A stretch of DNA of 42,356 nt from Candidatus Zambryskibacteria bacterium RIFOXYC1_FULL_39_10 (GTDB lineage: Bacteria > Patescibacteriota > Minisyncoccia > Phycocordibacterales > WO2-35-19). Below, piece after piece: positions 10,272 through 41,248 of this stretch. The position numbers and the translations under genes were made by a program. The notes under the pieces were generated by a model. That model was given only the letters and a program-made list of their open reading frames with translations. It did not search any database and was not told where the DNA came from. The stretch covers positions 1 to 42,356 of the forward strand of contig MHWW01000013.1 of NCBI GenBank assembly GCA_001824275.1. The letters are read 5' to 3'. Within the stretch, counting starts at the first letter, position 1. Every line of letters begins with the position of its first letter.

Positions 10272-10641
10272 TCCGTGGTAGCTCAGCGGTAGAGCGGTCG
10301 CCTGTGTAGTGTCACGCAGCTTCCCAAAGAAATTTGGGATTAAAAACGAGGTGAACTCGGGGAAGCCCAAACTTTAAAAAGTGGGTAATCCCGAGCCAAG
10401 CCCAGCACAACTCCTGAAAGTAAATATTTATTTTTAGAAGTTGTGCTGGGAAGGTGTAGAGACTATCTCGCAAGAGAGTAGAGTGTGAGTGTAAAGCATT
10501 TGCATTCGAAGCGCCTCGCCCCCTAACGTACCGTGCGGGTTTATCCCGAGCGTAGTCGAGGGAGATGATATAGTCCATGCTTCTAGTAATAGGAGATTAA
10601 ATGTAAGCGATTGGTCGTAGGTTCGATCCCTACCCACGGAG
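10272..10641 (+). tRNA. tRNA-Asn(GUU), split by a group I intron (exons 10272-10305 and 10604-10641)
   Basis: Acceptor TCCGTGG/CCACGGA with G73, D-arm GCTC/GAGC, anticodon stem GTCGC/GCGAT, spliced loop CT-GT|T-AA, T-arm GTAGG-TTCGATC-CCTAC. CCA not encoded. Confidence 0.92.
10306..10603 (+). ncRNA. group I intron (298 nt, no ORF) at anticodon position 35/36
   Basis: P1 CTGT|GT/ACGCAG with U.G splice pair, P3 CGAGG/CCTCG, P4 CTCGGG/CCCGAG, P7 GAGACTAT/ATAGTCC, terminal G. Two hairpins between P7 and P3' are IA-like. Confidence 0.92.
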
Positions 10642-12285
10642 CAAAGGTCGTGAAAGTGAGGTGCAAGCCTCCTGTCGTGGCTTAACTGAGGACTTTTTTG
10701 AGGTTCGAAAATTATTTTGAGCCTCCGGAAGTTCCATCGAAGAGTGATTATTTATTTTTCGCAAAGACCCGCTAGAAGCAATGCTTTTAGTGGTTTTTTG
10801 TTGCAGTTCGAAATTTTTTTCTAGGTCGATCTTTTCTTGTACTCTTTTGGCTAGGACCGAAACGGATTCTTTCAGTTCATAAGTCGTTTCTCCGTCTTTC
10901 AATGTAAGCATCGAGAATACGTGCTTCAAAAGCATCCTTCTTTCCTCCGGAGTTCTTTTTTCATAAATTTCTCTGGCCCTTCTAGCTAGATCCATGATAT
11001 TGAGCCAAATTTCGAAATATTTAGTTTCTTCACTTTTGACCCTGTTTATCTGCTCCAAAAGAGTAGCTTGCGCCTCGTTTATTTCTTGCTGTTTCTTTTC
11101 CCAAAATTCGCGGCTGATCTTGTTATCGAGGCGATCATCATAAAGGTTATCCAAACGCCTCTGTAGGCCGCTGTAACGTTCATTGAGAGACTTTAAGGTA
11201 CTTTCCTTGTATTCAATCTCGGCGGAGTGATCATTCTTTATTTTTTCCTTAATCTGTTCAGCTTCAACATAAGTAATATTTTCAAAAAATTTGAATACCC
11301 CCATTAACTTCTGCTCAACCTGCTCCTCGGGAGTGTATTTTTTCTGACTACAACCACGATAATGAGTGCAATGGCAATAGACAGTACCTTTTTGAATTTC
11401 AAAAGTAATGGTTCCATCACATTCACCGCACTTAATCATTTTTCTGAAAGTGAATTGGTGCCTTTGGTATTTCGGGGCATCACCTCTGGTCCTTACTTGT
11501 TGGACCTTATCGTACAATTCTTTAGTTATCAAAGGTTCATGCGACCCAGCATAAACCAAATCGTTCCAACGCATGGCTCCGTAATAAAAGGGGTCTTTTA
11601 GGATATCCTCAACTTTGCTTTTTGCGGGTTTTTTACCGGCTCTATTTCTAAATCCTTGCTCATATAATTCATCCACTACTCTTTTCATGGAATAATTTCC
11701 AGTAGCATAAAGTTCAAAAATTCTTTTTACATACGAAGCAGTATTTTCATCGATCACATGAATCTTATGGCCCTTATCTCCAATAGTTTTATAACCAAGT
11801 GCTGGTTTGGTTGGCAGCCATCCCTGTCTGATTTTTTCAGCTTGGCCTTTTTTAACTTCTTCCGAAAGATTGTTTGTATAGAATCTAGCAATGGCTACTT
11901 TCATGTCCCAGACCAAATTTTCGTGGGCACGAGTATTCTGATTTAATACGAAATTTTCTTTAACAAAGTGGACTTCCTTTTCACTTTTTGTGTGGACCCA
12001 ATCGTCAACAGTGGCGGCATCCTTCAAACTACGTGTTAGGCGATCAATTTTTTCGCACAAAATGATGTTTACATCTCTTTTGTCAGCAAATGAAAGCATG
12101 TCACCGAGAGTTTTTCTGATCTGCCATTTACTTGCTGATTCCGTAATTTTAAATACCTTTGGCACTTCAAGGTTTTTCTTATCCGCGTATTCTTTCAAGA
12201 GTTTCTCTTGCGCGTCCAGAGAATAGCCCGTTTCTTCCTGTTCTTTGGAAGATACTCTGCAATAGATCACAGCCTTAGTTTTCAT
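10630..12285 (-). CDS. large serine recombinase 1; stop codon lies inside the tRNA-Asn 3' end
   Basis: IYCRVSSKEQ (catalytic Ser), DRLTR, recombinase domain (LGY, PFYYG, HEPLI), zinc ribbon CGEC...CTH..C, coiled coil. Confidence 0.95.
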   Translation of the reverse strand: MKTKAVIYCRVSSKEQEETGYSLDAQEKLLKEYADKKNLEVPKVFKITESASKWQIRKTLGDMLSFADKRDVNIILCEKIDRLTRSLKDAATVDDWVHTKSEKEVHFVKENFVLNQNTRAHENLVWDMKVAIARFYTNNLSEEVKKGQAEKIRQGWLPTKPALGYKTIGDKGHKIHVIDENTASYVKRIFELYATGNYSMKRVVDELYEQGFRNRAGKKPAKSKVEDILKDPFYYGAMRWNDLVYAGSHEPLITKELYDKVQQVRTRGDAPKYQRHQFTFRKMIKCGECDGTITFEIQKGTVYCHCTHYRGCSQKKYTPEEQVEQKLMGVFKFFENITYVEAEQIKEKIKNDHSAEIEYKESTLKSLNERYSGLQRRLDNLYDDRLDNKISREFWEKKQQEINEAQATLLEQINRVKSEETKYFEIWLNIMDLARRAREIYEKRTPEERRMLLKHVFSMLTLKDGETTYELKESVSVLAKRVQEKIDLEKNFELQQKTTKSIASSGSLRKINNHSSMELPEAQNNFRTSKKSSVKPRQEACTSLSRPLLRG

Positions 12286-12323
12286 GATTTTTATATTTTA
12301 GCACTTTTAATTTTTTATAAATA

Positions 12324-12556
12324 GAACGACTTTTACCTTTGATGTTATCTGGGGTAATGTTATTTCTTATGACACCGAGGATGCGGAGAAGTCATTGTGA
12401 TTACCTTTGAATCCAATGCTACCCTGAAGTATTCCGATGCTCTTCAAATGGCCGGGCGAGAAGTCGTCACTCGTTTCCCCGGCTTTCACAAGAACACCTG
12501 AATACTCCTTAATGGTTTTTACTAAGAGCAAGTTATCCTGATGCCCTTACAGCAGG
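12324..12556 (-). promoter_or_regulatory. structured 5' leader of recombinase 1 (candidate cis-regulatory RNA)
   Basis: Crossing pairs AGTATTC/GAATACT and TGCTCTT/AAGAGCA, hairpin GCCGGG/CCCGGC, loop AAGTCGT complementary to ACGACTT (12326-12332). Confidence 0.5.
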
Positions 12557-12557
12557 T

Positions 12558-12743
12558 TTATCCTCGATTTTTTTGGTCCCCAGCCAACACAAACTCTTTA
12601 GAGGCTGGATCTAAAGAGTTTGTGTTGACATTCGACCCTTTCTTTAAGTGATCATTGTAATCGTACTGAGCGAGCAGGTCGAAAAATTCTGCTAGAGCAG
12701 TGATGTTATCTTCGTTTAGAGCATGATCGTTCTCAACGTTCAT
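12558..12743 (-). CDS. small helical protein upstream of recombinase 1 (possible directionality factor or regulator)
   Basis: Amphipathic ALAEFFDLLAQYD. Positional counterpart at 26657-26830. Confidence 0.6.
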   Translation of the reverse strand: MNVENDHALNEDNITALAEFFDLLAQYDYNDHLKKGSNVNTNSLDPASKEFVLAGDQKNRG

Positions 12744-12853
12744 GCTTTGATTTTCTTAAAATAAAAAGCCTTAGTATATTGGGCTTTTAAGGATTTTCTG
12801 TGGAAATGCCCTTAAAATAAAAGTGATTTGGTAGGGAAAAGTCCCAAAAAGTC

Positions 12854-13564
12854 CTACTCCATTTTTATTTCTAGAATATAAAGATTCTTCCCAGCACTTT
12901 CAATAGATAATGGCATCTTATATTCCCTTAGTCTCATCCTTAGTTTTTTCAGAGCTGATCGGAATGAATCTTCATCATCATAATGCCCATATTCTTCAAG
13001 ATCAATTCTGGGTATTGGCTTGCCTTTGGACAGCACGTTTCCTTTTTTAATTTTTTTTGGATTCTTTAGAAAAAAATCCATTATGGCTTTTTGCCCACTT
13101 CTTATTGGCATTTTTACAGTTCCACACATCAAATAATTATTGATAATCTTTATTTCGCTGATCTTGGAAATTACTGGGACAACAACCTGTTCTTCAAATT
13201 GGGTTAAGATAATCTCTTTTTCTTTTAGAATTGACCTCAACTTTTCCATATCTTCAAACATCCGCAGAGCATCTTCTCTTTGAAGTTTTATATTTTTACC
13301 GGAATGAATTTTGTTAAAAGATGGTAAATAATCTTTTATTAAACTCCATTTCTCAAAGAAACGATGGTATCGATTATTTTTTAAAAATATTCTACAAGCT
13401 TTTTCATCCCATTTTTTATATTCCGCATAAATTTTTAGGGCCAAGCTTCTTTTTTCATTTTTGCTGAAAGGCGCACCATCAATAAGATGGATTAAGCCAA
13501 ACAGCTCTATCCTTAAAATTTCTACTTGAGCGGCATATTGTGGACCCAACCTGTCCAAATTCAT
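12854..13564 (-). CDS. putative regulator with C-terminal winged helix-turn-helix
   Basis: C-terminal DSFRSALKKLRMRL...IESAGKNLYIL resembles an OmpR-type recognition helix and wing. Divergent from RNA motif 1. Confidence 0.65.
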   Translation of the reverse strand: MNLDRLGPQYAAQVEILRIELFGLIHLIDGAPFSKNEKRSLALKIYAEYKKWDEKACRIFLKNNRYHRFFEKWSLIKDYLPSFNKIHSGKNIKLQREDALRMFEDMEKLRSILKEKEIILTQFEEQVVVPVISKISEIKIINNYLMCGTVKMPIRSGQKAIMDFFLKNPKKIKKGNVLSKGKPIPRIDLEEYGHYDDEDSFRSALKKLRMRLREYKMPLSIESAGKNLYILEIKME

Positions 13565-13602
13565 ATACTTACATATTCTCTCAATTATGCTAAAATTTCA
13601 AT

Positions 13603-13764
13603 ACAACTGAATATAAAGCCTAGTAGCCTAAACCGGTGGTCGCCGGCATGGTGAAAAGTGAAGAAAGTCGCGAACAGCGTAAAAAACCCATCATCAGGGT
13701 TGCTGTTCGCGCCATATCGGGAAACTGGTATGTGGCCTCCGGGCCATCTGGTGGTGGGCTTTTT
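13603..13764 (+). ncRNA. conserved structured RNA motif, copy 1
   Basis: Follows TGcTAAAAT (13588-13596). Multi-stem junction ending TGGGCTTTTT. Covaries with copy 2 at 27810-27967. Confidence 0.8.
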
Positions 13765-13778
13765 GTATGTAAAAAACT

Positions 13779-14018
13779 ATGTGGAAATTATTTTGGAACA
13801 TCTTGGCGGTAGTAGTCGGTTTATATACCGGATATAGAATTTTTATTTGGTGTGGGGAACATATCCCAGCTTTTGGATATTTTCCTTTGGGTGTGATTGG
13901 CGGTTTGGCTGCATTGGGATTTGGTATTTATTTGATACATGGAGTAGAACTTTTAATTTCTTGGATTATAGGGAGATTATTTAAAATTCAAAAGGAAGAA
14001 GATTTACCTTTCAATTAA
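13779..14018 (+). CDS. small membrane protein
   Basis: Two hydrophobic segments. First gene of cargo array 1. Confidence 0.7.
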   Translation: MWKLFWNILAVVVGLYTGYRIFIWCGEHIPAFGYFPLGVIGGLAALGFGIYLIHGVELLISWIIGRLFKIQKEEDLPFN

Positions 14019-14029
14019 AACCCACTCAA

Positions 14030-15022
14030 ATGTTAAATTTTTTCAAAAACAAATTCATTAAAACATACAAACCTATTCTAGTTATTGTGATTATCTTAAT
14101 CATTTGTATTTTTGGTTTTATTGGTGTTAGAAAATACAGCGATTACAAAAATTTGCAGCAAAACACTACCCAAGAACTGATACAACAGCAACAGAAATCA
14201 TTAGAAGAAGCAATAAAAGAAATAAATGATTTAAAATCTGCAAACCAAGCAACATCCGAAAAATTGGACCAAAAAATCAACCAAATTGAAAGCAAAAGCC
14301 AAAAAACTGATTCTATAGGTTCTACCGATTTAGAACCTTATATAACCGGTGTTGTAGAAATAACCTGTAAGGATTCGTCAGGGAGCGGCTCATTGTGGAA
14401 TATTGATTCTAAAAATGTAGTCATTACAAATGATCATGTAGTAGAAACTCCCTTTTATAGCTCGTATAACAAACAAAGCTATTGTGTTGTGTTTGCGGAA
14501 AAAATAAATGGGGATTTCGATATGATTTATACAGTATTTCCGTCTTCAAAATGGAATTGGAATAATGAAACGGATATTGCAGTTATGAATCTTGTTGAAA
14601 AGTTTTATCCGGATGGCAATCCTCTTCCTAGTGAATTGGAGAAACCAGCGAATCATTTGAATTTTAAAATTTCTACACTAAAAAAATGCCCATCACAAAT
14701 AGCAGTTGGGTCTCCTGTAGTAGTGATTGGATATCCTGCCTCTGGTATGCAAGAGACATTTAATGGTATGGGGATTGATGCAGCAAGAATTGTTACGAAT
14801 GGGGTGGTTAGTGGATATGACAAGACTGTAAATCCTCCGTATGGAGGACTATTAAACCCAAATTATTATGTATCAGCAAAGATTGATAGTGGAAGTTCTG
14901 GGGGTATAGCATTATCTAGAAACGACGACAAATTGTGTGTCTTAGGTATCCCTACATGGATAAACGTCGGTAATTATGACACCCAGGGCGTGATTCAAAA
15001 TATTCATAATGTTATGAAATAA
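14030..15022 (+). CDS. membrane-anchored trypsin-like serine protease
   Basis: TM and coiled coil, with catalytic triad motifs TNDHVV, TDIAV and DSGSSGG. Confidence 0.88.
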   Translation: MLNFFKNKFIKTYKPILVIVIILIICIFGFIGVRKYSDYKNLQQNTTQELIQQQQKSLEEAIKEINDLKSANQATSEKLDQKINQIESKSQKTDSIGSTDLEPYITGVVEITCKDSSGSGSLWNIDSKNVVITNDHVVETPFYSSYNKQSYCVVFAEKINGDFDMIYTVFPSSKWNWNNETDIAVMNLVEKFYPDGNPLPSELEKPANHLNFKISTLKKCPSQIAVGSPVVVIGYPASGMQETFNGMGIDAARIVTNGVVSGYDKTVNPPYGGLLNPNYYVSAKIDSGSSGGIALSRNDDKLCVLGIPTWINVGNYDTQGVIQNIHNVMK

Positions 15023-15037
15023 AAATTTATTTTTAAG

Positions 15038-15322
15038 ATGACAAATTCATTTAAAAAAGTTGTTGCTTACATTGGCTCTGTAATAGTTTGTTTATGGCTT
15101 GCTTTAAACATTTTCATTGGCTTTGCATATCCGTCCCTAGTTGCTTTTGACGGAATAAAATTATTTTTCACAAATCCTCAAGAATTGATCAGACAAATGG
15201 TTGATCTTTTCGGAATACTTGGTCTTACTGTCATAGTTTTGATATTTCCCGGTGTTTTGATCTGGAGTTACGAAAAGTTTTCTGTTTTTTTGTTAAGAAA
15301 AAGATTATCTAAATGTAAATAA
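15038..15322 (+). CDS. small membrane protein
   Basis: Two TM helices, with array spacing. Confidence 0.7.
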   Translation: MTNSFKKVVAYIGSVIVCLWLALNIFIGFAYPSLVAFDGIKLFFTNPQELIRQMVDLFGILGLTVIVLIFPGVLIWSYEKFSVFLLRKRLSKCK

Positions 15323-15323
15323 T

Positions 15324-15494
15324 ATGCCTCATCAATTTCAATCAATAAATTGTAAAAAGTGCGGTCACGGATACTGCCCGGTATGCAAGGACAAGTGTCC
15401 GAAATGCGGAGAAGTGGATGTGGCTGACGAAAAAACGATGGAGATTAGAGAGCAGATGAAAACATTATTAAAATCAAATGGAAGAAAAAAATAA
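15324..15494 (+). CDS. 56-aa Cys-rich zinc-finger microprotein (not in ORF track)
   Basis: MPHQFQSINCKKCGHGYCPVCKDKCPKCGE... has three CxxC pairs and fills the gap between its neighbours. Confidence 0.7.
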   Translation: MPHQFQSINCKKCGHGYCPVCKDKCPKCGEVDVADEKTMEIREQMKTLLKSNGRKK

Positions 15495-16290
15495 AATATC
15501 AAAAAAAATTATTCTGTATTTTATCGGGATCGGCCTTGTCTCTTTTTTACTGGGGACCCTAGTCATGATTATACCCGAAGAAACGGGTCCGGAAGATAAC
15601 TTCTGTAATGTTATGGTCCTCTCATTAAACGGAGTACTCGCAACCTATCTACCCCCTAAATCTGAAGACGATTCGGAGATGTTCTACTCCTCCGAAAATG
15701 TTTTGGCTGCCATAGAAAAAGCGGAAAATGATCCCGATGTCAAAGGTCTCATTCTTTCAATCAATAGCCCGGGCGGCGATATTGTGGCCGGGGAAGAAAT
15801 AGCCAATGCCCTCAAGGCCATGAAGAAGCCAAATGTCGCTGTAATACGCAATATGGGAGCTTCTGCAGCCTTCCTTGCTTCCTCCGGAGCCGACAGAGTA
15901 TATGCTTCCAAACTGTCTGACACTGTTGGAATCGGGGTCACAATGTCTTACACCGATCAGACAGAGAAAAACAGGAAAGAGGGCTTAACTTTTAACCAAC
16001 TCTCAACCGGTAAATTCAAAGATGCCGGAGATCCGGATAAACCACTTACCGAAGAAGAAAAATTAATCTTCATGATTGATCTAGAAAAAGCTCACAAAAT
16101 TTTCGTTGAAGAAATAGCTCAAAACAGAAATCTCAAAATTGAAGATGTGTCTAAAATATCTACCGGCAGAACATATCTCGGGGAAGAGGCTCTCAATTTT
16201 GGCCTTATTGATGAGATTGGAAGTATAGATACTGCCGTTAAATACATTGAAAGTTTAACTGGAGAAAAAGCCGAAACTTGTTGGTATTAA
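15478..16290 (+). CDS. sppA: signal peptide peptidase SppA-like S49 peptidase
   Basis: INSPGG, MGASAAF, GIGV, GKFKDAG, GLIDEIG. Confidence 0.9.
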   Translation: MEEKNKISKKIILYFIGIGLVSFLLGTLVMIIPEETGPEDNFCNVMVLSLNGVLATYLPPKSEDDSEMFYSSENVLAAIEKAENDPDVKGLILSINSPGGDIVAGEEIANALKAMKKPNVAVIRNMGASAAFLASSGADRVYASKLSDTVGIGVTMSYTDQTEKNRKEGLTFNQLSTGKFKDAGDPDKPLTEEEKLIFMIDLEKAHKIFVEEIAQNRNLKIEDVSKISTGRTYLGEEALNFGLIDEIGSIDTAVKYIESLTGEKAETCWY

Positions 16291-16324
16291 AAACTAATTT
16301 AAAAAATATGGGATTAGCGATAAG
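16288..16324 (+). repeat. ~36-nt direct repeat, copy A (duplicated gene-start region)
   Basis: TAAAAACTAATTTAAAAAATATGGGATTAGCGATAAG, compared with 17111-17146. Confidence 0.7.
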
Positions 16325-16338
16325 TAAAAATAAATTAT

Positions 16339-17106
16339 ATGAAAAAATGTCCATTTTGCAAAAATGAAATTAATGTGGACGTAGCGCAATGCCCAATCTG
16401 TAAAATGATACTTATTGAAAAAATACCTCATATTAATCCTACTTCAGAACGAGTCTACACTTCATCATCACCAAAAGAACCAAAAAAGCAAACGCATACT
16501 TCTTATTACACTCCCCCTCAAAAATCTTCTTCTAAAGAGCGGTTTAAAATTCCAAATGGTAGTGGTTGGATAATTTCAATCGTTGGATCAATTGCACTCA
16601 CTTTAATTTTGAATGGTAATTATGGTTCTTCGAATCCGCTCCCCGCGCCATTATCTGATCCGACTATCGTAGATACTAATCTATCTTTAACACCAATTCC
16701 TCATACTTCATATTATTCACTTCCAAATGGCACAGTTCTCTTTTCCTCATCACTTAATGGAGAGGGCATTTTAAGCATTTCGAATGGGACCAAATCCGAC
16801 GCAGTCGTAAAACTCATTACAACAGGCGGTAGCAAAGTTTATTCTGTTTATGTGCGTGCCAATAGCAGCTATTCGATTGAAAATATAAACGACGGTATCT
16901 ATAGATTGCTTTTTTCTTTTGGTTCAAATTGGGACCCGAATCAAAATAAGTTTTTGGTTAATCCAAGGGCGGAAGCTTTTGATGATACTTTCGATTTTGA
17001 GACTTCAGATACCAAATCTACAGGTTTTACTATTACTTTAAATCCGGTAATTGACGGAAAAGCCACAACGAGCCCACTCGATTCAAATGTATTTGATAAA
17101 TACTAA
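16339..17106 (+). CDS. zinc-ribbon + TM + extracellular beta-rich domain protein
   Basis: CPFC...CPIC, S/P/T-rich linker, one TM, C-terminal DGIYRLLFSFGSNWD. Confidence 0.8.
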   Translation: MKKCPFCKNEINVDVAQCPICKMILIEKIPHINPTSERVYTSSSPKEPKKQTHTSYYTPPQKSSSKERFKIPNGSGWIISIVGSIALTLILNGNYGSSNPLPAPLSDPTIVDTNLSLTPIPHTSYYSLPNGTVLFSSSLNGEGILSISNGTKSDAVVKLITTGGSKVYSVYVRANSSYSIENINDGIYRLLFSFGSNWDPNQNKFLVNPRAEAFDDTFDFETSDTKSTGFTITLNPVIDGKATTSPLDSNVFDKY

Positions 17107-17110
17107 ACTT

Positions 17111-17146
17111 TAAAAATTAATTTAAAAACATGGGATCAGCGATAAG
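17111..17146 (+). repeat. ~36-nt direct repeat, copy B
   Basis: TAAAAATTAATTTAAAAACATGGGATCAGCGATAAG. Confidence 0.7.
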
Positions 17147-17288
17147 AGTAGCTATACAACTTTTAGAAGAATTTTGGAAAATGCCTTTCGAAGGAAAACT
17201 CCTGTTCATTATTCCAACAGTAATTGTAGTCAGTTTGATTATTTGGAAAGAGGAAAGAAATAAAAATAAAATATGGAATAAAAAATAA
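17130..17288 (+). CDS. 52-aa single-TM microprotein (not in ORF track)
   Basis: MGSAIRVAIQLLEEFWKMPFEGKLLFIIPTVIVVSLIIWKEERNK... Confidence 0.55.
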   Translation: MGSAIRVAIQLLEEFWKMPFEGKLLFIIPTVIVVSLIIWKEERNKNKIWNKK

Positions 17289-17322
17289 AATTTTTCATAA
17301 ATTCATGTTTTTGTTATTTGTT

Positions 17323-17395
17323 GCCCTCGTAGCTCAATGGACAGAGCAAGACGCTTCTATCGTCAAGGTTGGAGGTTCGACCCCTTCCGAGGGCA
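17323..17395 (+). tRNA. tRNA-Arg(UCU), island-borne
   Basis: GCCCTCG/CGAGGGC acceptor, GCTC/GAGC D-arm, loop CT-TCT-AT, T-arm GGAGG-TTCGACC-CCTTC. A27:A43 mismatch. Confidence 0.88.
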
Positions 17396-17485
17396 CAAGA
17401 TTAAGTGAATATGGAACCTTTGTATTGAGAGGTGTATTATGGGACCATATCGCCGATCAACTTTTGATTTTTAATATCAAAAAAT

Positions 17486-18310: not shown

Positions 18311-18336
18311 CCGAAAAATATAATTTTTTATAAAAA

Positions 18337-19629: not shown

Positions 19630-19657
19630 TTTGGGTATACTATTGCAATTTACTACC

Positions 19658-30618: not shown

Positions 30619-30622
30619 TGTT

Positions 30623-31598: not shown

Positions 31599-31687
31599 AG
31601 CAAAAATTGTATCATATATTATTTTAACAATACCAACAATTAACAAACTTATTCCAGCCCCCAACGAAGATATAGAGGCTATTTATT

Positions 31688-31736
31688 ACCAAAAACCAAC
31701 CAAAAATGACCAAAATTTTCCACGTATTTCCACGTA
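31688..31736. repeat. helically phased short direct repeats upstream of terS-like 2
   Basis: ACCAAAA at 31688, 31699 and 31709. TTTCCACGTA at 31717 and 31727. Confidence 0.65.
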
Positions 31737-31788
31737 TTTTATTAGTAGCGATTTTACTGGGCTTAGACCCAAATATAGAAAAGTATAT

Positions 31789-32523: not shown

Positions 32524-32534
32524 TATTTTAAGTA

Positions 32535-33470: not shown

Positions 33471-35523
33471 ATTTTTTATTATTTAACATACTGTTATTAT
33501 TAGCTAATTTCTCATCAAAAAAATCAACTATTACGGGTTTATCACAACTTGAACCTTTCCCAACAACTATTGCTCTAAATCTTGGTAGTATACTCATACT
33601 ATCAAGATATTTTTGATTGATATAAGCACTCATAAAGTTCTTTGATGTCTCATCGAATGATTGCAAGGCAATTATTGTGTGGCACTGATAAAGTATTGTT
33701 TTAGTGACTAAGGCTGTTCTTTGGGTAATAATTAAAAAGCCGATGTTATGTTTGCGGCACTTTAGAACAACTTGAGATATGCGACTTACTTTCTTTTGAC
33801 CGAAACCCTGGTCTCCAAATGTGCTTTCTGGAATAAAATCATAGGCCTCCTCCATTGCTATACATATTTTCTGGTCCTCATTTAGGGTCTGATAAGCAAC
33901 AACCTTTTCAATTAAGTTTGCAGTAATTTCACTTAAATTTAGAGTTCCTGTGCTTTTATCTTTGTCATCAGTCTGCCAATTTATAGAAATTACGTTTTTG
34001 GTAGTCTTAGAAAGATCAAAGGTATCAGAGTTTTGCTCCTCAATTATTTCTGAGTTTATATAAGTAGTAAGAGATTGTTTATGCTTACGATCCACCTCTA
34101 AAATAACAACTTTGAACCCATCTGTAGCCATTTTTTCTAATATCTTCGCGGCCATTCTTGATTTGCCTGTCCCTGTTTTTCCTATAACTGCGATATGGTG
34201 GCTAACACTCTCTTCGAGATCAATAAATATGGGGTATTTTGAACGAGGAACAACTCCAACTTTATAACAAGAACCGTTTATTATATCTATCTCTTTTGTA
34301 TCGTTTTCAATAAAAACAGGAGAATTAACACTCGGAACCCAACCTGTGTCGGTAAATTTTTGTTTATCATCTTGCCAGTATCCAATTTGTTGGGCAGTTA
34401 TTGTTTTTGAACCCTTTTTACTTTGACCGTCGATATTCTCGGAGTCAGTTTCTACATTTATAATTTGATATTTGGTTGAATTTTTATAAAAACTTACAGA
34501 AATTAAATCGCCCTCTTTTAGAGTTTTGTTCTCATCTATACCATCTATCATTTTTACCTTAATAACATCAATATCTGAATTTGTGCTAACAAATCCAATT
34601 ATATTATCCCGATTTTTGTATACCTCTAATTCTTTTACACATTCTGGGACTTCATCTGTATTTTTATGTAAATAAATTTGTTTCGAGACATCAAGTTCTT
34701 TTTGATTTAAACAGTTAAAATGAAGATATTTTTTACTGTCAGCAGTTAATTCCTCTATAAACATAGCAAATACCAACTTTTCTTTAGTATGAGAATTATT
34801 TATATCATCTATAATCGCTATATCGCCCGTCTTTAAATTTGGGGACCCGGGTAATTGCTCTATGTAAAGTATGCCTGGATTTAATCTTTTTACTATTCTG
34901 CCAATTAATTTGGGTTTACTCTTATTCCTAATTTTTTCGAGTAAAGGATCGATTATTTTCCTATCTATTGGCTCTATAAGAATAGCTGTTCCCCAAAAGG
35001 CAATCATAAGTAATACCGCGATCTGTCCTTTATTTACGGAGGATATTCCTTCCAGATATGGAACAAAATAACTAAAAATAGAAAGTATAAACACAACAGA
35101 AAACAGCATTTTTGAACTACCAAAAAAACTCGATACAACATTTGCAGAATGAGCTATTTTTTGTGATATATGATTTTTATCTTTTTCTTCATTAATAAAA
35201 AGAAAAGAAATTATGGCGATTACCGCAATTATTGAAGCATATATAAGTAGGGGTTTATAAAGCAAGAAAGCATTTATATTATCTAATGTAGTTAAAACAA
35301 CAAAAAGCGAGGTTATGTTTACTATTACATCAAGAGGTTTTGTAAAATACTTTTCCGTCACAAAAACACCAAGAATTATCAAAAGTAAGCCACTTGTAAA
35401 CCATATCTGCGCATCCTTTCCGATATTCACGAAAATACGGTCAATAATTAAAAACCTTATAATAAACAAAGCTCCTGCAAAAAGAATAAAATATACTAGG
35501 TTTTTAATTCTTTTCGTATTCAT
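33460..35523 (-). CDS. HerA/DUF87-family ATPase with multi-TM N-terminus
   Basis: About 6 TM helices, HIAVIGKTGTGKS, IAMEEAY, RK..IG..IITQR. Confidence 0.85.
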   Translation of the reverse strand: MNTKRIKNLVYFILFAGALFIIRFLIIDRIFVNIGKDAQIWFTSGLLLIILGVFVTEKYFTKPLDVIVNITSLFVVLTTLDNINAFLLYKPLLIYASIIAVIAIISFLFINEEKDKNHISQKIAHSANVVSSFFGSSKMLFSVVFILSIFSYFVPYLEGISSVNKGQIAVLLMIAFWGTAILIEPIDRKIIDPLLEKIRNKSKPKLIGRIVKRLNPGILYIEQLPGSPNLKTGDIAIIDDINNSHTKEKLVFAMFIEELTADSKKYLHFNCLNQKELDVSKQIYLHKNTDEVPECVKELEVYKNRDNIIGFVSTNSDIDVIKVKMIDGIDENKTLKEGDLISVSFYKNSTKYQIINVETDSENIDGQSKKGSKTITAQQIGYWQDDKQKFTDTGWVPSVNSPVFIENDTKEIDIINGSCYKVGVVPRSKYPIFIDLEESVSHHIAVIGKTGTGKSRMAAKILEKMATDGFKVVILEVDRKHKQSLTTYINSEIIEEQNSDTFDLSKTTKNVISINWQTDDKDKSTGTLNLSEITANLIEKVVAYQTLNEDQKICIAMEEAYDFIPESTFGDQGFGQKKVSRISQVVLKCRKHNIGFLIITQRTALVTKTILYQCHTIIALQSFDETSKNFMSAYINQKYLDSMSILPRFRAIVVGKGSSCDKPVIVDFFDEKLANNNSMLNNKKYEQ

Positions 35524-35531
35524 ACCCTACT

Positions 35532-37472
35532 TTATTTATTATCTCCCCATAGTTCAGCGACCTTTTGTTTTATTTCTTCATTGTTATTCAGTATATGTTT
35601 TTCAAGTTTTTTATTTTGAAAATTTATATCTTCAATTTGTTTTGATGTTTTACCGACAATATTCTCATAAATCGGTATCTTTAAGGATAAAAATATCTCT
35701 TTAGGAACAACCCTCCGTCTATTCGCAGTTCCTTTCATAGAATTTTTGTATAAATTAATAGCAACAGGAGATCTTAATATATATTCTAAATATATAATGG
35801 GTATATCGGATCTTTTTACTCTCCATACATCATATGCAGGACTTACTGCGGCATAGTCATATTTTGTTTGAAAACCTAAAACACCCTCATCAATTGGGAA
35901 ACCAACAACAAGTTCATCTCTCTTTACTAATTTGTATTTAGATATGTCTATATTTGCAATTCTTTTTTTAAATTTTTTAGATTGGTCTATTAACCCATTA
36001 TTCATAGTAATTGACATCACTGGTATATTTTTTCTTTTTCCAACTTTTTCTCCAGACTTTTCCAAAATAGACGACAAGGGGACCATCCCCCATATCTGCT
36101 GTGGTCCTGTATTATCAAAATAGTATTCCTGTTTCAAAAAAGCATTCTTGCTGTTCAAAATGGTCTCTTTTGATTTAAATTTAATATCAAGCGCGTTTTC
36201 AATTTCTTGACTATTTAAACTAATTGCTTTTTTAATGTCTATCAACTTATCGGTAACTAGTCCTATATTTATCGGCATTGACTGACTAATCTCGTAAGAA
36301 GTGTTTACTTGAATAGTTTCGACTTTCAAAAAATAAATATTTCTTGATTTTATAGATTTATCAATAAATAAGATTGAAGTTTTTACTTTACTGTAAGGCT
36401 GAAAGATACCAGCTGGCAAATCAACTATTGCCCATAATCCGCCGCCGACTAACTCTTTCCTTAAACTATTGTAAGTCCGACCCGATGTATTTATCACACC
36501 ATCTGGGACAATAATACCGGCTCTGCCGTCTGGTCTTAGATGCTCCTTGATATAGTCGACGAAAAGAACTTCTGAACGGTTAGCTTGCACGCTAAAGCGT
36601 TTGTGGGGCCTTATACCACCCTTTGGAGACATAAAAGGTGGGTTGGCCATTATTACGTCATAAAACTCGTCCCAACGCTCCTCACTCGACAGGGTGTCAT
36701 ATTCGTAGATTTTAGGGTCAGCAAAGCCGTGGAGATACATATTGACTTTAGAGAGCTTTACCATATCTGGAGAAATGTCATAGCCAACAAGGTTACCTGT
36801 AAGTTTTTTCTTTTCATCCGGAGTAAGTGATTGTTCTGCATTTGTAAGTTCTCCAGTTTTATTATCTCTACAGTCGTGTTGGTTTATGATATGTTTGTAG
36901 GCGGAAATAAGGAAGCCGGCAGTGCCGCAAGCTGGGTCCAAGATAGTCTCGTCTTTCTTTGGGTCTATAACATCAACTATAAAATCTATAATGTGGCGCG
37001 GGGTTCTGAATTGGCCGGCATCTCCCTGGGATCCCATTATGGAAAGCATATATTCAAAAGCATTACCCAAGTTCTCACTATGATCATATTCAAAACCATT
37101 TATTTCTTTAAGAAAAAGATTGAGTGTTTCCGGACTTCTGTATGGGAGGAAAGCGTCTTTAAAAAAGTCTCTGAATAACTGCGGAATATGCGGGTTTTGG
37201 GACATCTTCATTATTGCTTCTCCATAAAGCTCTAATCTTTCTTGACCGCCAAGCTTGGGGTCCATTAGTTTACTCCAAGCATATTTTTCAAACCCATTGG
37301 AAAAGAAACGGGACTTGCCCCCAAACACAACCGAGGCCTTATCCATATCATCCATAAATTTATAGATAAGGGCTGTAGTTATTTGCTCCACCTGCGCTTT
37401 TGGATCGGGAACCTTACCAACGAGAATATCTCTGGCCGAGTCGATTTTCTTTTTTATCTCTTGAGTAAGCAT
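35532..37472 (-). CDS. hsdM: type I-like N6-adenine methyltransferase fused to one HsdS-type target recognition domain
   Basis: GQFRTP, LDPACGTAGF, ANPPF. C-terminal W..VPL...VSPAY...YLEYILRS...LKIP plus coiled coil. Confidence 0.9.
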   Translation of the reverse strand: MLTQEIKKKIDSARDILVGKVPDPKAQVEQITTALIYKFMDDMDKASVVFGGKSRFFSNGFEKYAWSKLMDPKLGGQERLELYGEAIMKMSQNPHIPQLFRDFFKDAFLPYRSPETLNLFLKEINGFEYDHSENLGNAFEYMLSIMGSQGDAGQFRTPRHIIDFIVDVIDPKKDETILDPACGTAGFLISAYKHIINQHDCRDNKTGELTNAEQSLTPDEKKKLTGNLVGYDISPDMVKLSKVNMYLHGFADPKIYEYDTLSSEERWDEFYDVIMANPPFMSPKGGIRPHKRFSVQANRSEVLFVDYIKEHLRPDGRAGIIVPDGVINTSGRTYNSLRKELVGGGLWAIVDLPAGIFQPYSKVKTSILFIDKSIKSRNIYFLKVETIQVNTSYEISQSMPINIGLVTDKLIDIKKAISLNSQEIENALDIKFKSKETILNSKNAFLKQEYYFDNTGPQQIWGMVPLSSILEKSGEKVGKRKNIPVMSITMNNGLIDQSKKFKKRIANIDISKYKLVKRDELVVGFPIDEGVLGFQTKYDYAAVSPAYDVWRVKRSDIPIIYLEYILRSPVAINLYKNSMKGTANRRRVVPKEIFLSLKIPIYENIVGKTSKQIEDINFQNKKLEKHILNNNEEIKQKVAELWGDNK

Positions 37473-37481
37473 TTGTATTTT

Positions 37482-37733
37482 TTATTTACCCCAACGTTTT
37501 GATGCTCCTAATCTTCCAATACTGGCCATATGTTCTTTACCGTATTTCTTAATTACTATTTTTCCACCTTTAGCCCCAGCTTCTTTGGTAGTAATTACTT
37601 TAAGGTTTTTACTTTTTAGTGATAATTCTTTGGTTAATTGATTATAAATACGATCAAACAATTCCAAAGCTTTTAATAATTCACCTTTATTTTTTAAATT
37701 TTTGATATTTTTCAACTCTTTTTGTAAGTTCAT
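37482..37733 (-). CDS. small protein with KGG-repeat-like C-terminus
   Basis: EAGAKGG....KYGKEHMASIGRLG. Confidence 0.65.
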   Translation of the reverse strand: MNLQKELKNIKNLKNKGELLKALELFDRIYNQLTKELSLKSKNLKVITTKEAGAKGGKIVIKKYGKEHMASIGRLGASKRWGK

Positions 37734-37738
37734 AGTAT

Positions 37739-40252
37739 TTACATAAAAATATTAAGCGAAACATAGTCCTTCACATATTCTGGAACGACATCTCTATATC
37801 CATTCAAACTGCTGAAGTCAGCCATAGTAACCTTTGGATTGGTAGCGAAACGAGCATATTCTTTTGACTCAACAATCTCTCGTATTTCAGTATCAGTTAT
37901 GTAAGCTTTTAAGTAGTTTTTGATTGGGTAGTAGTATTTGCTCTCTGGTTTGTAGATAGAAATAAATTTCTCAAATTCTTCTTCAAGAAGTTCGTCCTTA
38001 TTTTTGAATTTATCCAGCCGGCCAAATACTTTATCTAACACCTCACTTAAAGTGAGACGGCGATCTATCTTTAGGGCCTTACGAATTTTATCTAGACTGA
38101 AATACTCTTCCGGTTTATCAAATATCTCTGTTTTTACATAATCTTCAACGGCTTGCATATCGCCAGCTTCGTATTTCTCTTTAACAAATTCATCTGATTT
38201 AATCACTTCCTCAAATTTCTCAAACAGCTTCCTGTCTACTTTCATACCTTCCGGACCGATAGCCTTTTCTTGGAAAGTTTTGAGAGGATCGGGAGTGAAA
38301 ATAGTTGTCTCATCTATTGGAACGGGTCCAGGTCCTGGGCCTGGTCCGGGACCAGTGCGAGGCGGTAAAGTAAGAATTTCATCGTAATTAAATTTCTCCT
38401 CAAAGTATTCGCAGTTTGCAAAGAAATCAAAAAGCTTGAAATTATTCTTATCGTTATTACGTGTCTCTACCTCCCCGTTTTCTTTGGTCTGGTAAGAGAA
38501 GTTATATTTTCTTGTCCCTCTGCCTTTTATTTGAATAAAGTCTGTGGGAGAGAAAATGGGTCTCATTAGACAAAGGTTTAATATGTCTTGGCAATCATAT
38601 CCGGTAGTCATCATACCAACAGTTACGCATATACGAGACTTGCTCGACAAATAACCCTCAAGCCACTTAGTGTGCCCGTTTAAATTATTGTTTGAGAAGT
38701 TTATGGTGAAAGTTTGCGCATCAGATATGTTAGAAGTGACTTGGACCGCAAAATCAGAATTGTATTTACCGGGCCAGTATTTATCTGCGAATTGATTGAG
38801 TATTTGAGTGATTTTGCTTGCGTGATTTTGGCTTACACAATAAACAATACTTTTACCAAGCTCTCCGGAAATCGGATCCATAAGGGCATTCTTAAGAAAA
38901 GTCTCAGAGAATATAAGATTAGTTTTATCGGAAAAGAATTTTCTTTCAAAGTCTGTGTGATAAAAAGTTTGCTCTTCCTTACCTTCTTCTGCGTCAATAA
39001 GCAGGGAGTATCCTTTTTCTGAAAGAAGTTCGGTTGTTATCTCCGTCCTTGCATCAGCAACTACCGGATTTATAAGGTATCCTTCTTTAACTCCATCAAG
39101 CAGGCTGTATCTGAAAGTAGGTTCACCAACTTCACAACCAAAAGTTTTATAAGTATCTAAAAGCTGCCTTCTTTCCCACGCTCGCGGATCCTTTTCATTC
39201 AATTTATTTGGGTCGATACCCTTAAGGTAGTTCTTTGGGGTAGCAGTAAGGCCAAGTTTATAACCAACAAAGTATTCAAATACAGCGCGGCTGTTTCCGC
39301 CTATGGACCTATGGGCTTCGTCTGAGATAATCAAATCGAAGTCGGTAGGAGTAAAGAGTTTTTGGTATTTATTATTAGCAGAAAGACTTTGAACTGTGGA
39401 GACAACAATCTCCGCCTTTCGCCAGTCGCCTTTATTTTCCTTATAAATAACAGTTGTGTAATCTTTGGATAGCCATTTCTTGAAATTTTTGGCTGCTTGG
39501 TCCTCCAACTCAAGACGATCTACAAGAAAGAGAACTCTTTTGGCATTGCCTGTCTTTAGAAATAATTTTATTACCGCCGCGCAAGTAAGAGTTTTACCGG
39601 TTCCGGTAGCCATTTCAAACAAATATCTATCAAACCCGTTTTTAGCTGAATTTTGAAGGGCGTGAATTGCTTTTAACTGGTATGGTCGGAGAAACTTGAA
39701 ATCCTGCTCTAACACGAAACTCTTTCTCTCACCATCATTATCCCAACGAGGGTCTTCTTCATAATCAGCATTTTGAGTGAGCACAATATAATCTTCCTTC
39801 ACTTTTTCGTCTGACAATCTTCTCGTATCCGGCTTAAATTGTTCAAAATGAGACAAGGACTCCTGTGTCGGGAAAGAAGTAATGACATTGGGACTACCGC
39901 GCTCTAGATCCCAAAAGTAGTGGAGATTGCCATTTGAAAGTATTACAAAACGGACACTTAGAGATTGAGCATATTTCCTTGCCTGTTCTTTACCATCAAG
40001 AGGGTTTTTACCTTCCGATTTTGCCTCTAAAACAACGTATGGGAAGCTCTGTTGGTCCAAAAGTAAGAAGTCGACAAATCCCTCCTTTACTTTATCAAAA
40101 TCCTCTCCAAGCTCGTTTACAGCCTTTGGAGTGAGTTTTACATTCTCCTCAAGAACTATGTTGGCTGATCCTTTTTCATTATCAAAAAAACGCCATTTAG
40201 CCTCTTCCAACAGCTTGTTTATCTTTATTCTTGCTCCAGCCTCTTTTTCCAT
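37739..40252 (-). CDS. hsdR: type I restriction endonuclease subunit R (nuclease + SF2 DEAH translocase)
   Basis: VDFLL..VLEAK, LRPYQ, MATGTGKT, FLVDR, DEAHRS, GLTATP, QIKGRGTR. Confidence 0.92.
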   Translation of the reverse strand: MEKEAGARIKINKLLEEAKWRFFDNEKGSANIVLEENVKLTPKAVNELGEDFDKVKEGFVDFLLLDQQSFPYVVLEAKSEGKNPLDGKEQARKYAQSLSVRFVILSNGNLHYFWDLERGSPNVITSFPTQESLSHFEQFKPDTRRLSDEKVKEDYIVLTQNADYEEDPRWDNDGERKSFVLEQDFKFLRPYQLKAIHALQNSAKNGFDRYLFEMATGTGKTLTCAAVIKLFLKTGNAKRVLFLVDRLELEDQAAKNFKKWLSKDYTTVIYKENKGDWRKAEIVVSTVQSLSANNKYQKLFTPTDFDLIISDEAHRSIGGNSRAVFEYFVGYKLGLTATPKNYLKGIDPNKLNEKDPRAWERRQLLDTYKTFGCEVGEPTFRYSLLDGVKEGYLINPVVADARTEITTELLSEKGYSLLIDAEEGKEEQTFYHTDFERKFFSDKTNLIFSETFLKNALMDPISGELGKSIVYCVSQNHASKITQILNQFADKYWPGKYNSDFAVQVTSNISDAQTFTINFSNNNLNGHTKWLEGYLSSKSRICVTVGMMTTGYDCQDILNLCLMRPIFSPTDFIQIKGRGTRKYNFSYQTKENGEVETRNNDKNNFKLFDFFANCEYFEEKFNYDEILTLPPRTGPGPGPGPGPVPIDETTIFTPDPLKTFQEKAIGPEGMKVDRKLFEKFEEVIKSDEFVKEKYEAGDMQAVEDYVKTEIFDKPEEYFSLDKIRKALKIDRRLTLSEVLDKVFGRLDKFKNKDELLEEEFEKFISIYKPESKYYYPIKNYLKAYITDTEIREIVESKEYARFATNPKVTMADFSSLNGYRDVVPEYVKDYVSLNIFM

Positions 40253-40345
40253 CTTATTTAGATAATTTTGTTAACATAATTACAAAAACAATACCACTTT
40301 TAAACGATTTTTGAAAGGTTAAAAATTGTTAGCTCTTTTGATACT

Positions 40346-40585
40346 ATGCGTCCAATGAGAAGATGGAAAAATAGAAATTATATATCAAAAAACGGTCTTG
40401 ATCCGGATACCAATCGCTTTATCGGCAGTCTAACTTATTTCATATTCCACTCAATTATTTTTTTGGTAAGTTATAAAATATGGGGGATTGATATGTTTGA
40501 AGAGGTATTTTTCTACCTTATGCATCTGGCCACTTTCTTTCTTGTTGGCTTTACTCTCCGCAAGTTAAAAATTTGGGTTTATTAA
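40346..40585 (+). CDS. small membrane protein
   Basis: Two hydrophobic helices. Confidence 0.55.
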   Translation: MRPMRRWKNRNYISKNGLDPDTNRFIGSLTYFIFHSIIFLVSYKIWGIDMFEEVFFYLMHLATFFLVGFTLRKLKIWVY

Positions 40586-40600
40586 GTTTTTCAAAAATTT

Positions 40601-40756
40601 ATGAGAAAAAGTAAGGTTCCTAAAATTGAATACATTTGTATTGCTGACAAAAACCCCAAAGAAAGTGAGGACAGAATGCGCGAGGCGTATTTTATATTGT
40701 TTGAAGAAGTAGAAAGAAGAAGGAGAGAAAAAGAGGGTCAGAAAAAACAGGATTGA
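40601..40756 (+). CDS. 51-aa microprotein (not in ORF track)
   Basis: MRKSKVPKIEYICIADKNPKESEDRMREAYFILFEEVERRRREKEGQKKQD. Confidence 0.5.
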   Translation: MRKSKVPKIEYICIADKNPKESEDRMREAYFILFEEVERRRREKEGQKKQD

Positions 40757-40811
40757 TTTTTTATAGTATGGTAATATGTTAGCGACCTTAAAAGTCATTC
40801 GTCTACGGCTT

Positions 40812-40838
40812 AGGGGCCTAATATCTTGGGTCCCTTTT
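40812..40838 (+). terminator. intrinsic terminator-like hairpin
   Basis: AGGGGCCTA-ATATCT-TGGGTCCCT followed by TTT. Confidence 0.55.
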
Positions 40839-40883
40839 GCATTATAAATAAACATTAAATAAATTTGGACCTTCTTTTTAAAA

Positions 40884-40912
40884 TTGGCATTTCTTATATT
40901 TTTTGTTAACAT
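40884..40912 (+). promoter_or_regulatory. promoter of the second tRNA-Asn
   Basis: TTGGCA-17-TAACAT with TG extension, followed by a leader hairpin TGTTCCT/AGGAACA as upstream of tRNA 1. Confidence 0.55.
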
Positions 40913-40942
40913 AATCATGTTCCTTATTTAGGAACACAGCAT

Positions 40943-41248
40943 TCCTCGGTAGCTCAGTGGTAGAGCGGCCGCCTGTGTCGAATAACGCAGCTTCCAAAAG
41001 AAATTTTGGTTGAAAAACGAGGTGAATTCGGGGAAACCCCAATGGGGCAATCCCGAGCCAAGTCTCGATTAACATCGGGAAAGGTGTAGAGACTATCCTT
41101 TATGGAGTAGGACGTGATTGTAAAAATTTTACGTTCGAAGCGCCTCGCCCCTAAGTCTTAAAGATATGGGGATGATATAGTCCATACTTCTGGTAACAGG
41201 AGATTAAATGTAAGCGGTTGGTCGTAGGTTCGAATCCTACCCGAGGAG
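40943..41248 (+). tRNA. second tRNA-Asn(GUU), split by a group I intron (exons 40943-40976 and 41211-41248)
   Basis: Acceptor TCCTCGG/CCGAGGA with G73, anticodon stem GCCGC/GCGGT, spliced loop CT-GT|T-AA, T-arm GTAGG-TTCGAAT-CCTAC. Confidence 0.92.
40977..41210 (+). ncRNA. group I intron (234 nt, no ORF), homologous to 10306-10603
   Basis: Same P1, P3, P4 and P7 cores (GGTGTAGAGACTAT, CGAAGCGCCTCGCCCC, GATGATATAGTCCAT, AGGAGATTAAATG), with shorter peripheral stems. Confidence 0.92.

Follow-up and report, generated by a model that had tools for sequence, protein, structure and literature searches.

The window, by which we mean the whole 42,356-nucleotide (nt) stretch of DNA analyzed here, is contig C13 of the genome of Candidatus Zambryskibacteria bacterium RIFOXYC1_FULL_39_10 (G000). 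This groundwater bacterium has a 0.74-Mb genome (744 kb in 25 contigs; 98% complete, contamination 0.09%), and its relatives go by names such as Candidatus Paceibacterota, Nomurabacteria and Taylorbacteria. The window contains two complete tRNA-Asn(GUU) genes, tRNA1 and tRNA2, each interrupted by a group I intron. An earlier reading made from the sequence alone (the sequence-only reading) had described them as the brackets of one mobile island. The analysis confirmed the two genes. The 30.6 kb between them reads as at least two stacked elements, A and B, each with its own large serine recombinase (LSR), SR1 and SR2, and not as one island. Coordinates are collected in Table 1.

The default ARAGORN search misses both tRNA-Asn genes and calls only a tRNA-Arg in the window, and the intron search recovers both. 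The 40 tRNAs found in the 25-contig genome include no tRNA-Asn besides these two, and no further tRNA-Asn-like stretch was found in the window. As had been described, the far side of the array holds a second full gene, 307 nt long with its intron, and not a short 3′ fragment. The two diverged introns are inserted at the same site, after base 35 of the anticodon, and are 298 nt (tRNA1) and 234 nt (tRNA2) long. Both match the full Rfam group I intron model (RF00028, model positions 1–253; cut-off 50 bits), at 10296–10596 with 74.8 bits and at 40969–41203 with 69.4 bits. The exons are identical at 63 of 72 positions (87.5%), and three pairs are fully compensated between the copies: 4-69 and 5-68 in the acceptor stem, where the sequence-only reading had seen such changes, and 28-42 in the anticodon stem. 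After removal of the intron, both genes form a GUU-anticodon cloverleaf in which every stem pairs (ARAGORN and alignment), and the tRNA-Asn copies have U1-A72 and G73, which serve as identity marks. Both pre-tRNAs are presumably spliced and both tRNAs used.

The upstream regions of the two genes are also alike. A similar leader hairpin is present at both, as noted earlier, and that of tRNA1 is conserved in same-genus relatives. Both genes are preceded by an extended −10 promoter-like site, but such sites are no commoner here than in shuffled sequence. The sole open reading frame (ORF) in the spacer ahead of tRNA2, of 117 amino acids, is noise-like and has no homologue. Similarity between the loci extends over 10247–10642 and 40918–41249 and ends at a shared GGAGC. 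The two acceptor stems differ in sequence and yet each is perfectly paired, so any site-specific crossover would have to lie at or after this GGAGC, in agreement with the sequence-only reading.

Judged by sequence and gene order, tRNA1 is the native gene, because its exons match the intronless G011 tRNA-Asn with 100% identity, its promoter block and leader hairpin recur upstream of tRNA-Asn in the same-genus genomes G011 and G001, and the PAP2-tRNA-Asn arrangement recurs in relatives. G011 has the most similar flanking genes among the relatives compared (SerRS 96%). The order DprA-SerRS-FtsQ-ClpB-Dus-(bPH)-PAP2-tRNA-Asn is found in G004 and G025; G007 shares it apart from a gap of 1.5 kb. Cargo genes of the island were not found in the fetched stretches of relatives that keep PAP2 beside tRNA-Asn.

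Element A (approximately 10643–23456) is joined to tRNA1 just past GGAGC and contains SR1, a LOOT RNA, peptidases, a tRNA-Arg, a nuclease and a Terminase_2-like gene. SR1 has Resolvase (87 bits) and Recombinase (67 bits) domains and a zinc ribbon that scores 22.3 bits, below its cut-off of 25.3, and its C-terminus, ...PLLRG-stop, is read inside tRNA1. We compared 79 loci of the SR1 family in public genomes, of which 69 were assessable; 10 were left out where the contig ends at the recombinase gene. A convergent tRNA overlaps or abuts the recombinase 3′ end in 48 of the 69, and no tRNA was found in 21. The targets were called as 29 Asn, 16 Gln and 1 Val. Two loci labelled by the script with a neighbouring tRNA, although an Asn or Gln gene overlaps the recombinase end, were reassigned by eye, giving 30 Asn, 17 Gln and 1 Val. 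The SR2 family, represented by 18 loci at 29–43% identity, has 12 tRNA-Asn, 1 tRNA-Leu, 1 tRNA-Ser and 1 miscalled intron-bearing tRNA at the recombinase 3′ end and none in 3 loci; in G216, the alignment to SR2 continues about 37 nt into the opposite-strand tRNA. Both recombinase families thus use tRNA 3′ ends.

The distal end of element A was defined by comparison with two related islands. In G017, which belongs to another genus of the same family, PAP2 and an inverted tRNA-Asn flank an island of 19.8 kb with homologues of SR1 (64%), the SR1-adjacent gene, DUF4268 and the Terminase_2-like gene (44%, in the same position). A 37-nt block beside the Terminase_2-like gene, which we call P_A, is 100% identical in G017, where it lies 9.7 kb from the tRNA, and similarity starts abruptly at that edge. 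In locus L126, whose SR1 is 63% identical, the P_A block covers 44 nt at 89% identity and lies about 5.9 kb from its tRNA. A three-way alignment of G000, G017 and L126 shows agreement up to ...GCGA and then a break at the same base, followed by the SR2 body in G000 and by a GC dinucleotide and a terminator hairpin in G017 and L126. By eye, P_A has a T-loop-like GTTCTAAAA and an ending that resembles the tRNA GGAGC, and we read it as the arm that closes SR1-type elements distally. On this reading, the tRNA1 end and P_A bound element A, at a breakpoint common to G017 and L126. This does not fit a single island moved by recombinase 1, as had been proposed: element A ends at 23456, and a recombinase of a tRNA-Asn-targeting family is joined there. 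The far side of the G017 island had no repeat of the tRNA end.

SR2 has Resolvase (63 bits) and Recombinase (26 bits) domains and no zinc-ribbon match, and its tail, read from P_A, is ...ALADDFRTIDW.... Both recombinase genes are followed by the same kinds of features: small genes, a LOOT RNA on the opposite strand, cargo on the plus strand, and a Terminase_2-like gene. LOOT RNA was found in both elements of the window and in all six other SR1-type loci scanned (L124, L125, L126, L127, L128 and L043), at 1–5 kb from the recombinase and heading the cargo genes; it is on the opposite strand in seven of the eight elements and on the same strand in L126. The genes adjoining the two LOOT RNAs have no protein similarity to each other, and the same is true of the two Terminase_2-like genes. 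Among the island proteins compared, PHROGs named only the terminase-like genes. Whole tRNA genes occur as cargo of these elements: the tRNA-Arg(UCU) of element A, which lacks an encoded CCA and is about 70% identical (estimated from the aligned letters) to the chromosomal copy at C11:54208–54282, has a counterpart in an SR2-type island of G171 (L346, 12799–12871), which also holds a tRNA-Arg(UCU).

Table 1. Features of the window, in order of position
Feature	Position	Strand	Basis and remarks
tRNA1 promoter-like site	10213–10240	+	TTGCAA, 16 nt, TACAAT; TG before second hexamer
tRNA-Asn(GUU) copy 1 (tRNA1)	10272–10642	+	5′ exon 10272–10305, group I intron 10306–10603, 3′ exon 10604–10641; ARAGORN intron search, Rfam
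SR1, LSR of element A	10630–12285	-	Pfam; last 13 nt overlap tRNA1 3′ end
LOOT RNA of element A	13625–13746	+	Rfam RF03000, 58.4 bits
Cargo tRNA-Arg(UCU) of element A	17323–17396	+	ARAGORN, Rfam
Small Terminase_2-like (helix-turn-helix) gene, last of element A	22945–23337	-	Pfam, PHROG
SR2, LSR of element B	23344–25152	-	Pfam; last 37 codons read from P_A
P_A, putative distal attachment arm of element A	23420–23456	+	Degenerate mimic of tRNA 3′ half; SR2 joined right after
LOOT RNA of element B	27832–27950	+	Rfam, 81.4 bits
Second Terminase_2-like gene	31083–31664	-	Pfam, PHROG
Defence/restriction cargo	31789–40252	-	DUF4268, HerA/DUF87 ATPase, N6 DNA methylase, small ORF, ResIII helicase-nuclease; Pfam
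tRNA2 upstream spacer, probably non-coding	40253–40942	.	About 690 nt; 117-aa ORF looks spurious
Terminator-like hairpin in tRNA2 spacer	40812–40835	+	About 50 nt upstream of tRNA2 promoter-like site
tRNA2 promoter-like site	40884–40912	+	Extended −10
tRNA-Asn(GUU) copy 2 (tRNA2)	40943–41249	+	5′ exon 40943–40976, intron 40977–41210, 3′ exon 41211–41248; ARAGORN intron search, Rfam
Accessory YceG/MltG-like paralogue	41283–42290	+	Pfam; TTGACT promoter box begins 3 nt after GGAGC

The right border of the array is, on gene comparison, not chromosome backbone, because the gene that had been called mltG is an accessory YceG paralogue; accessory DNA flanks tRNA2 on both sides, and its bracketing role is not shown on the right because of this. 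The housekeeping YceG is on contig C22 (16675–17598), matches the single YceG of most relatives and is 35% identical to the window copy. Among 37 genomes searched, close homologues of the window copy (78–79%) were found only in G007 (two places) and G019, and the other best YceG matches had 26–45% identity. In G007, the YceG gene forms a duplicated two-gene cassette with an SNase gene (L120 9122–10920 and L121 9079–10895; 85% nucleotide identity over 1.8 kb), and both cassettes are in variable regions adjoining tRNA clusters. The genes beyond tRNA-Asn in G001, G004, G007, G009, G017 and G045 match contig C19 of G000, so the backbone of the relatives resumes with genes that are on another contig here.

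For element B, tRNA2 is the sole tRNA-like candidate for a distal end; accessory DNA lies beyond it, and no pair of an occupied and an empty site turned up. No second copy of the SR1 or SR2 tail was found in the window or the genome, and the stretch beside the second Terminase_2-like gene (31665–31790) contained nothing convincing as a tRNA-like arm. Distal direct repeats in related elements end in GGAGC or GGAGCA. They include a 19-nt repeat of the tRNA end in L159, 7.4 kb apart, a 17-nt repeat of the tRNA-Gln end in L139 and a 13-nt repeat in G171. In G308, the last 19–20 nt of the tRNA recur with 100% identity at 14.0 and 15.4 kb, and a TTGACA box follows each distal copy within 3–4 nt. The GGAGC of tRNA2 is likewise followed by TCTTGACT and then by the YceG gene, so the 3′ end of tRNA2 occupies the position of the closing repeat in such elements. 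Many attP sites complete the interrupted gene, according to one report (PMC12884075).

On this basis, we consider it the most likely reading, with moderate confidence, that tRNA2 is element-borne and forms the distal arm of element B (approximately 23457–41249), because its end is at the closing-repeat position and the window offers no other tRNA-Asn-like stretch or recombinase tail for this role. The native tRNA1 3′ end would then be the landing site for a stacked LSR array. Element A would have entered, joined tRNA1 just after GGAGC and closed with its own arm, P_A. Such a distal arm followed by old host flank would resemble a fresh target to a recombinase that recognizes tRNA-Asn ends, and because the combination looks like a free target, a later element could enter at the distal end. 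G308, with its two distal copies of the tRNA end, is an array of this kind. Element B, with SR2, its LOOT RNA and its restriction/defence cargo, would have entered at P_A, which would explain why the last 37 codons of SR2 are now read from P_A. Its distal arm would be a whole tRNA-Asn gene, complete with a promoter and a group I intron that lacks an ORF, brought from a close relative.

Several observations weigh against this reading of the distal end. No second complete tRNA-Asn was found at the distal end in any of the 79 SR1-family loci (10 kb on the element side) or the 12 SR2-family stretches (up to 20 kb), nor in the fully visible 19.8-kb island of G017. P_A has only a loose resemblance to the 3′ end of tRNA2, a similarity ending at GGAGC would be seen between any two tRNA genes, and the old host half-site is unrecognizable because the flank after tRNA2 is not backbone. 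Element B could also end before tRNA2, because tRNA2 has its own promoter-like site and is preceded by a probably non-coding, junk-like spacer of about 690 nt with a terminator-like hairpin about 50 nt upstream of that site. G032, G042 and G045 have two tRNA-Asn loci apiece; these are on different contigs, and no island is seen between them. These last features also speak for a different explanation, in which tRNA2 is not an arm but a resident second copy of tRNA-Asn, stemming from an old duplication or from an earlier layer of the variable array. The two recombinase elements would then merely be located between two chromosomal copies, with element B ending in the upstream spacer. This explanation would further be helped by the fact that a sister relation of the two introns is not rejected (approximately unbiased (AU) test, p 0.34). 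We nevertheless regard a resident gene as unlikely, though it deserves to be kept in mind. Both flanks of tRNA2 are accessory, its acceptor sequence TCCTCGG is absent from 28 tRNA-Asn genes parsed in 27 relatives, and nothing else in the window, be it a repeat of the tRNA end or a recombinase tail, could close element B. No relative's locus read with ARAGORN has two tRNA-Asn genes together.

The whole 30.6 kb might instead be one SR1-moved element, with an attachment site made of the tRNA2 3′ end and the SR1 gene end, a crossover at GGAGC and SR2 as cargo or nested passenger. SR1 abuts tRNA1, the direct orientation of the two genes and the GGAGC limit fit, and composite excision of stacked elements is conceivable. 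Joining the SR1 end to tRNA2 would also keep the stop codon (PLLLG-stop in place of PLLRG-stop, by eye), as the sequence-only reading had it. This version is improbable when set against the related elements: the SR1-type elements of G017 and L126 end at P_A, which is present at 23420–23456 in the window, SR2 is joined at the very base where the similarity to them stops, and the SR2 family itself targets tRNA-Asn ends. An assembly artefact, that is, a chimeric contig joining two populations at tRNA-Asn, can be considered because the genome is a 25-contig metagenome bin whose contig ends share repeats; the last 51 nt of the window (42306–42356) recur at the ends of C2 and C9 and are multi-copy, at a depth of about 105 compared with 26 elsewhere. 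Such an error is very improbable here. The longest exact stretch common to the two tRNA loci is under 21 nt (read from the alignment), and contamination of the genome is very low. A 23.7-kb Logan contig from a possible source run spans 22357–41014 with 0 differences and carries the SR2 junction, so that element A, SR2, the cargo and the tRNA2 intron follow one another unbroken. The continuation from the intron through the 3′ exon to the YceG gene is covered by short pieces and a 1.1-kb piece at a depth of 18–26, again with 0 differences. The run of an independent study gave contigs 37081–41014 and 41008–42179 with 0 differences. In both runs, the ResIII gene, tRNA2 and the YceG gene are linked via abutting or overlapping Logan contigs, which confirms the distal junction. 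This contig support spans the distal half, from 22357 onward, and the tRNA1 junction is outside that span.

Other searches of the runs and of the composition gave little. Contigs of four runs contained neither an empty site nor a junction of tRNA2 with the SR1 or SR2 end, a result that is uninformative either way because rare forms do not show up in contigs. Contig joints that skip the 234 nt have sides of 18–37 nt and come from intronless tRNA-Asn genes of other organisms. Scanning metagenomes for the tRNA2 5′ exon as an IUPAC pattern was likewise not informative: 80 of 119 stretches were checked, and all were tRNA-Asn without a tRNA2-type intron and without a flank common to the window. GC content was tried as an island marker and rejected, as the ranges inside (0.30–0.40) and outside (0.36–0.43) the island overlap.

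The introns were compared with those of relatives. The U.G pair at the 5′ splice site (P1, columns 34/47) is kept in six of six aligned genes, compensatory change is seen in 19 of the 88 predicted pairs of this six-sequence alignment, and both introns end in a terminal G (...AAATG directly before the TAA of the 3′ exon). Neither intron contains a sense-strand ORF of at least 30 amino acids, and the two antisense ORFs tested had no Pfam match. The intron is present in 14 and absent in 14 of the 28 parsed tRNA-Asn genes; three more loci did not parse and are outside this count. In an even sample of the order (401 genomes, G000 included), 61 match tRNA2 at E ≤1e-12, a threshold that requires similarity of the intron and not of the exons alone. 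Identical exon alleles are found in intron-bearing and in intronless genes: tRNA1 versus G011, and G009 and G019 versus G012 and G007.

In a tree of 61 introns, introns 1 and 2 form one clade (support 92/97) with those of G001 and G009, from the same genus, and of G032, from the same family. Because of this grouping, the donor of the tRNA2 intron was probably a close relative. Intron 1 is sister to the G001 intron (84% identity) and intron 2 is nearest to the G009 intron (89%), and the same-genus G006 has an intron from a distant clade. Both introns are thus placed among those of the same genus and family; a clade of introns 1 and 2 alone is not rejected, as noted above. There was no sign of conversion between the two tRNA copies or of an island copy passing its intron to the host gene, since intron 1 is sister to G001 and not to intron 2. 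The earlier suggestion that one copy came from a related host holds in that tRNA1 is native and tRNA2 was most likely imported with mobile DNA.

The lengths of tRNA-Asn introns are bimodal, at 179–310 nt and 533–625 nt. One sense-strand ORF was tested in each of four long introns (G018, G021, G045 and G152), and all four encode an HNH endonuclease. HNH ORFs are located at L046 9986–10375, L047 9565–9921, L115 10393–10743, L048 6112–6459 and L034 10222–10602. In G009 (L034), a free-standing HNH gene ends just upstream of the intron-bearing tRNA-Asn, and in G006 one lies likewise upstream of tRNA-Asn (by eye). G000 itself has an HNH homologue (36%) at C9:49850–50257, beside tRNA-Phe. Because longer introns in relatives encode HNH endonucleases, ordinary homing followed by ORF loss can, as far as the sequences tell, explain the patchy spread of this intron family. 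The island as a route of intron spread, which the sequence-only reading had put forward, is thus possible but not needed.

Some further observations concern the introns of relatives. G032 (76% complete, 110 contigs) likewise has introns, of 207 and 269 nt, in two tRNA-Asn genes (L323 45–324 and L045 3553–3894), which are on separate contigs, one of them only 3.4 kb; this could be a second such case or a strain mixture. Introns also seem to be present in tRNA genes of relatives other than tRNA-Asn. In G152 (L116 9976–10284), ARAGORN calls a tRNA-Asp(GUC) with a 234-nt intron in a stretch 71% identical to tRNA2 over 240 nt. In G019 (L122 3283–3604), it calls a tRNA-Met with a 250-nt intron.

Other observations relate to the insertion site. 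The orientation of tRNA-Asn relative to the same flanking genes is flipped in G017 (L043), G009 (L034) and G032 (L045) compared with G000, G001, G004, G007 and G025, and G009 has an inverted remnant of the usual upstream region 0.7–0.9 kb downstream of its tRNA-Asn; inversions at the tRNA-Asn site seem to be frequent. Between tRNA1 and the SR1 body (10643–10720), there is a hairpin whose arms differ among G000, G017 and G004 and yet stay paired, followed by a T-run and a T-arm-like GAGGTTCGAAAAT. A 28-nt block within this stretch is identical in G000 and G017, though the proteins are only 64% identical. The stretch may serve as terminator of the tRNA, as an additional site for the recombinase, or as both at once. 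We also weighed a crossover about 80 nt beyond tRNA1, where the SR1 gene contains the T-arm-like GGTTCGAAAAT, but set it aside because the repeats in L159, L139 and G308 are at the tRNA end itself. Three more LSR genes are on contig C17 (12247–13941, 18811–20043 and 29434–30450), one of which ends about 200 nt from a tRNA-Gln on the opposite strand (20259–20330); this looks like a second recombinase island site in G000.

Genomes of about 0.7 Mb usually have a single gene per tRNA, so an insertion at such a gene, or a second copy of it, touches an essential function. If the stacking outlined above is correct, the locus shows LSR islands accumulating at a single tRNA end, where every newcomer uses the distal arm of its predecessor, and a recombinase tail that is rewritten by whatever DNA it lands beside. 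An island can apparently also carry a complete spare tRNA with a predicted self-splicing intron. If tRNA2 is element-borne, the origin of the tRNA-like attachment arms in this large island family would be explained, and tRNA alleles and introns could plausibly travel on the island from one close relative to another. A bolder and doubtful extension is that the short tRNA-end mimics closing Patescibacteria LSR islands might be decayed whole tRNA genes, with element B as the undecayed state, and that the island could deliver a working spare tRNA-Asn and its intron to each new host. Should this hold, host tRNA alleles could be replaced, and an ORF-less intron could be transferred between co-resident copies without an endonuclease.

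A literature search, judged by titles and abstract openings, found no published description of LSR islands with LOOT RNA at tRNA genes of the candidate phyla radiation (CPR). The same search, with the same limit, found no work on group I introns in CPR tRNA genes; the literature on tRNA-Asn group I introns was mostly on organelle genomes. The general type of LSR/LOOT island is a recombinase running antisense into the tRNA-Asn 3′ end, a LOOT RNA between recombinase and cargo, and defence cargo, with stacking of elements and distal arms that resemble the tRNA end. Other islands of this type at tRNA ends have a 13–20-nt distal repeat, whereas the array in the window has a complete intron-bearing tRNA-Asn with its own promoter-like site, unseen in the other 92 loci examined. 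Among published systems, the classical tRNA islands and the stacked SCC or ssrA islands described below come nearest. In the classical islands and prophages, which use tyrosine integrases, the far side is marked by a short duplicate of the tRNA 3′ end. The window resembles them in that a tRNA 3′ end is the target, the gene is intact after insertion and a direct repeat marks the far border. It differs in that the recombinase is a serine recombinase, the crossover would have to lie at or beyond the last tRNA bases and the far repeat is a whole diverged gene.

In Haemophilus phage HP1, the attP region duplicates tRNA gene sequence, and in both systems, if tRNA2 is the arm of element B, tRNA gene sequence lies within the attachment site and flanks the integrated element. 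HP1 uses a tyrosine integrase and a near-identical copy, whereas the exons in the window are 87.5% identical, with compensatory stem changes and a group I intron of their own. Composites of the staphylococcal cassette chromosome (SCC/SCCmec) and the ssrA islands of Dehalococcoides are cases in which successive serine-recombinase elements accumulate at a single conserved gene, at its 3′ end, each leaving a repeat of the target end. Unlike in these stacks, the target in the window is a tRNA, the recombinase tail varies with the neighbour and one repeat is an entire gene that looks functional. Group I introns in the anticodon loop of bacterial tRNAs are known from tRNA-Leu(UAA) of cyanobacteria, tRNA-Ile of Azoarcus and tRNA-Arg of Agrobacterium. 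Those described here are similarly small, with the same anticodon-loop location, the U.G pair at the 5′ splice site, the terminal G and a conserved core. Unlike the known cases, they occur as two diverged copies in the two tRNA-Asn genes of one 0.74-Mb genome, the same exon allele is found with and without intron in relatives, and the long forms encode HNH endonucleases. The island type itself is already known; what is new is the complete, diverged, intron-bearing tRNA that ends the stack.

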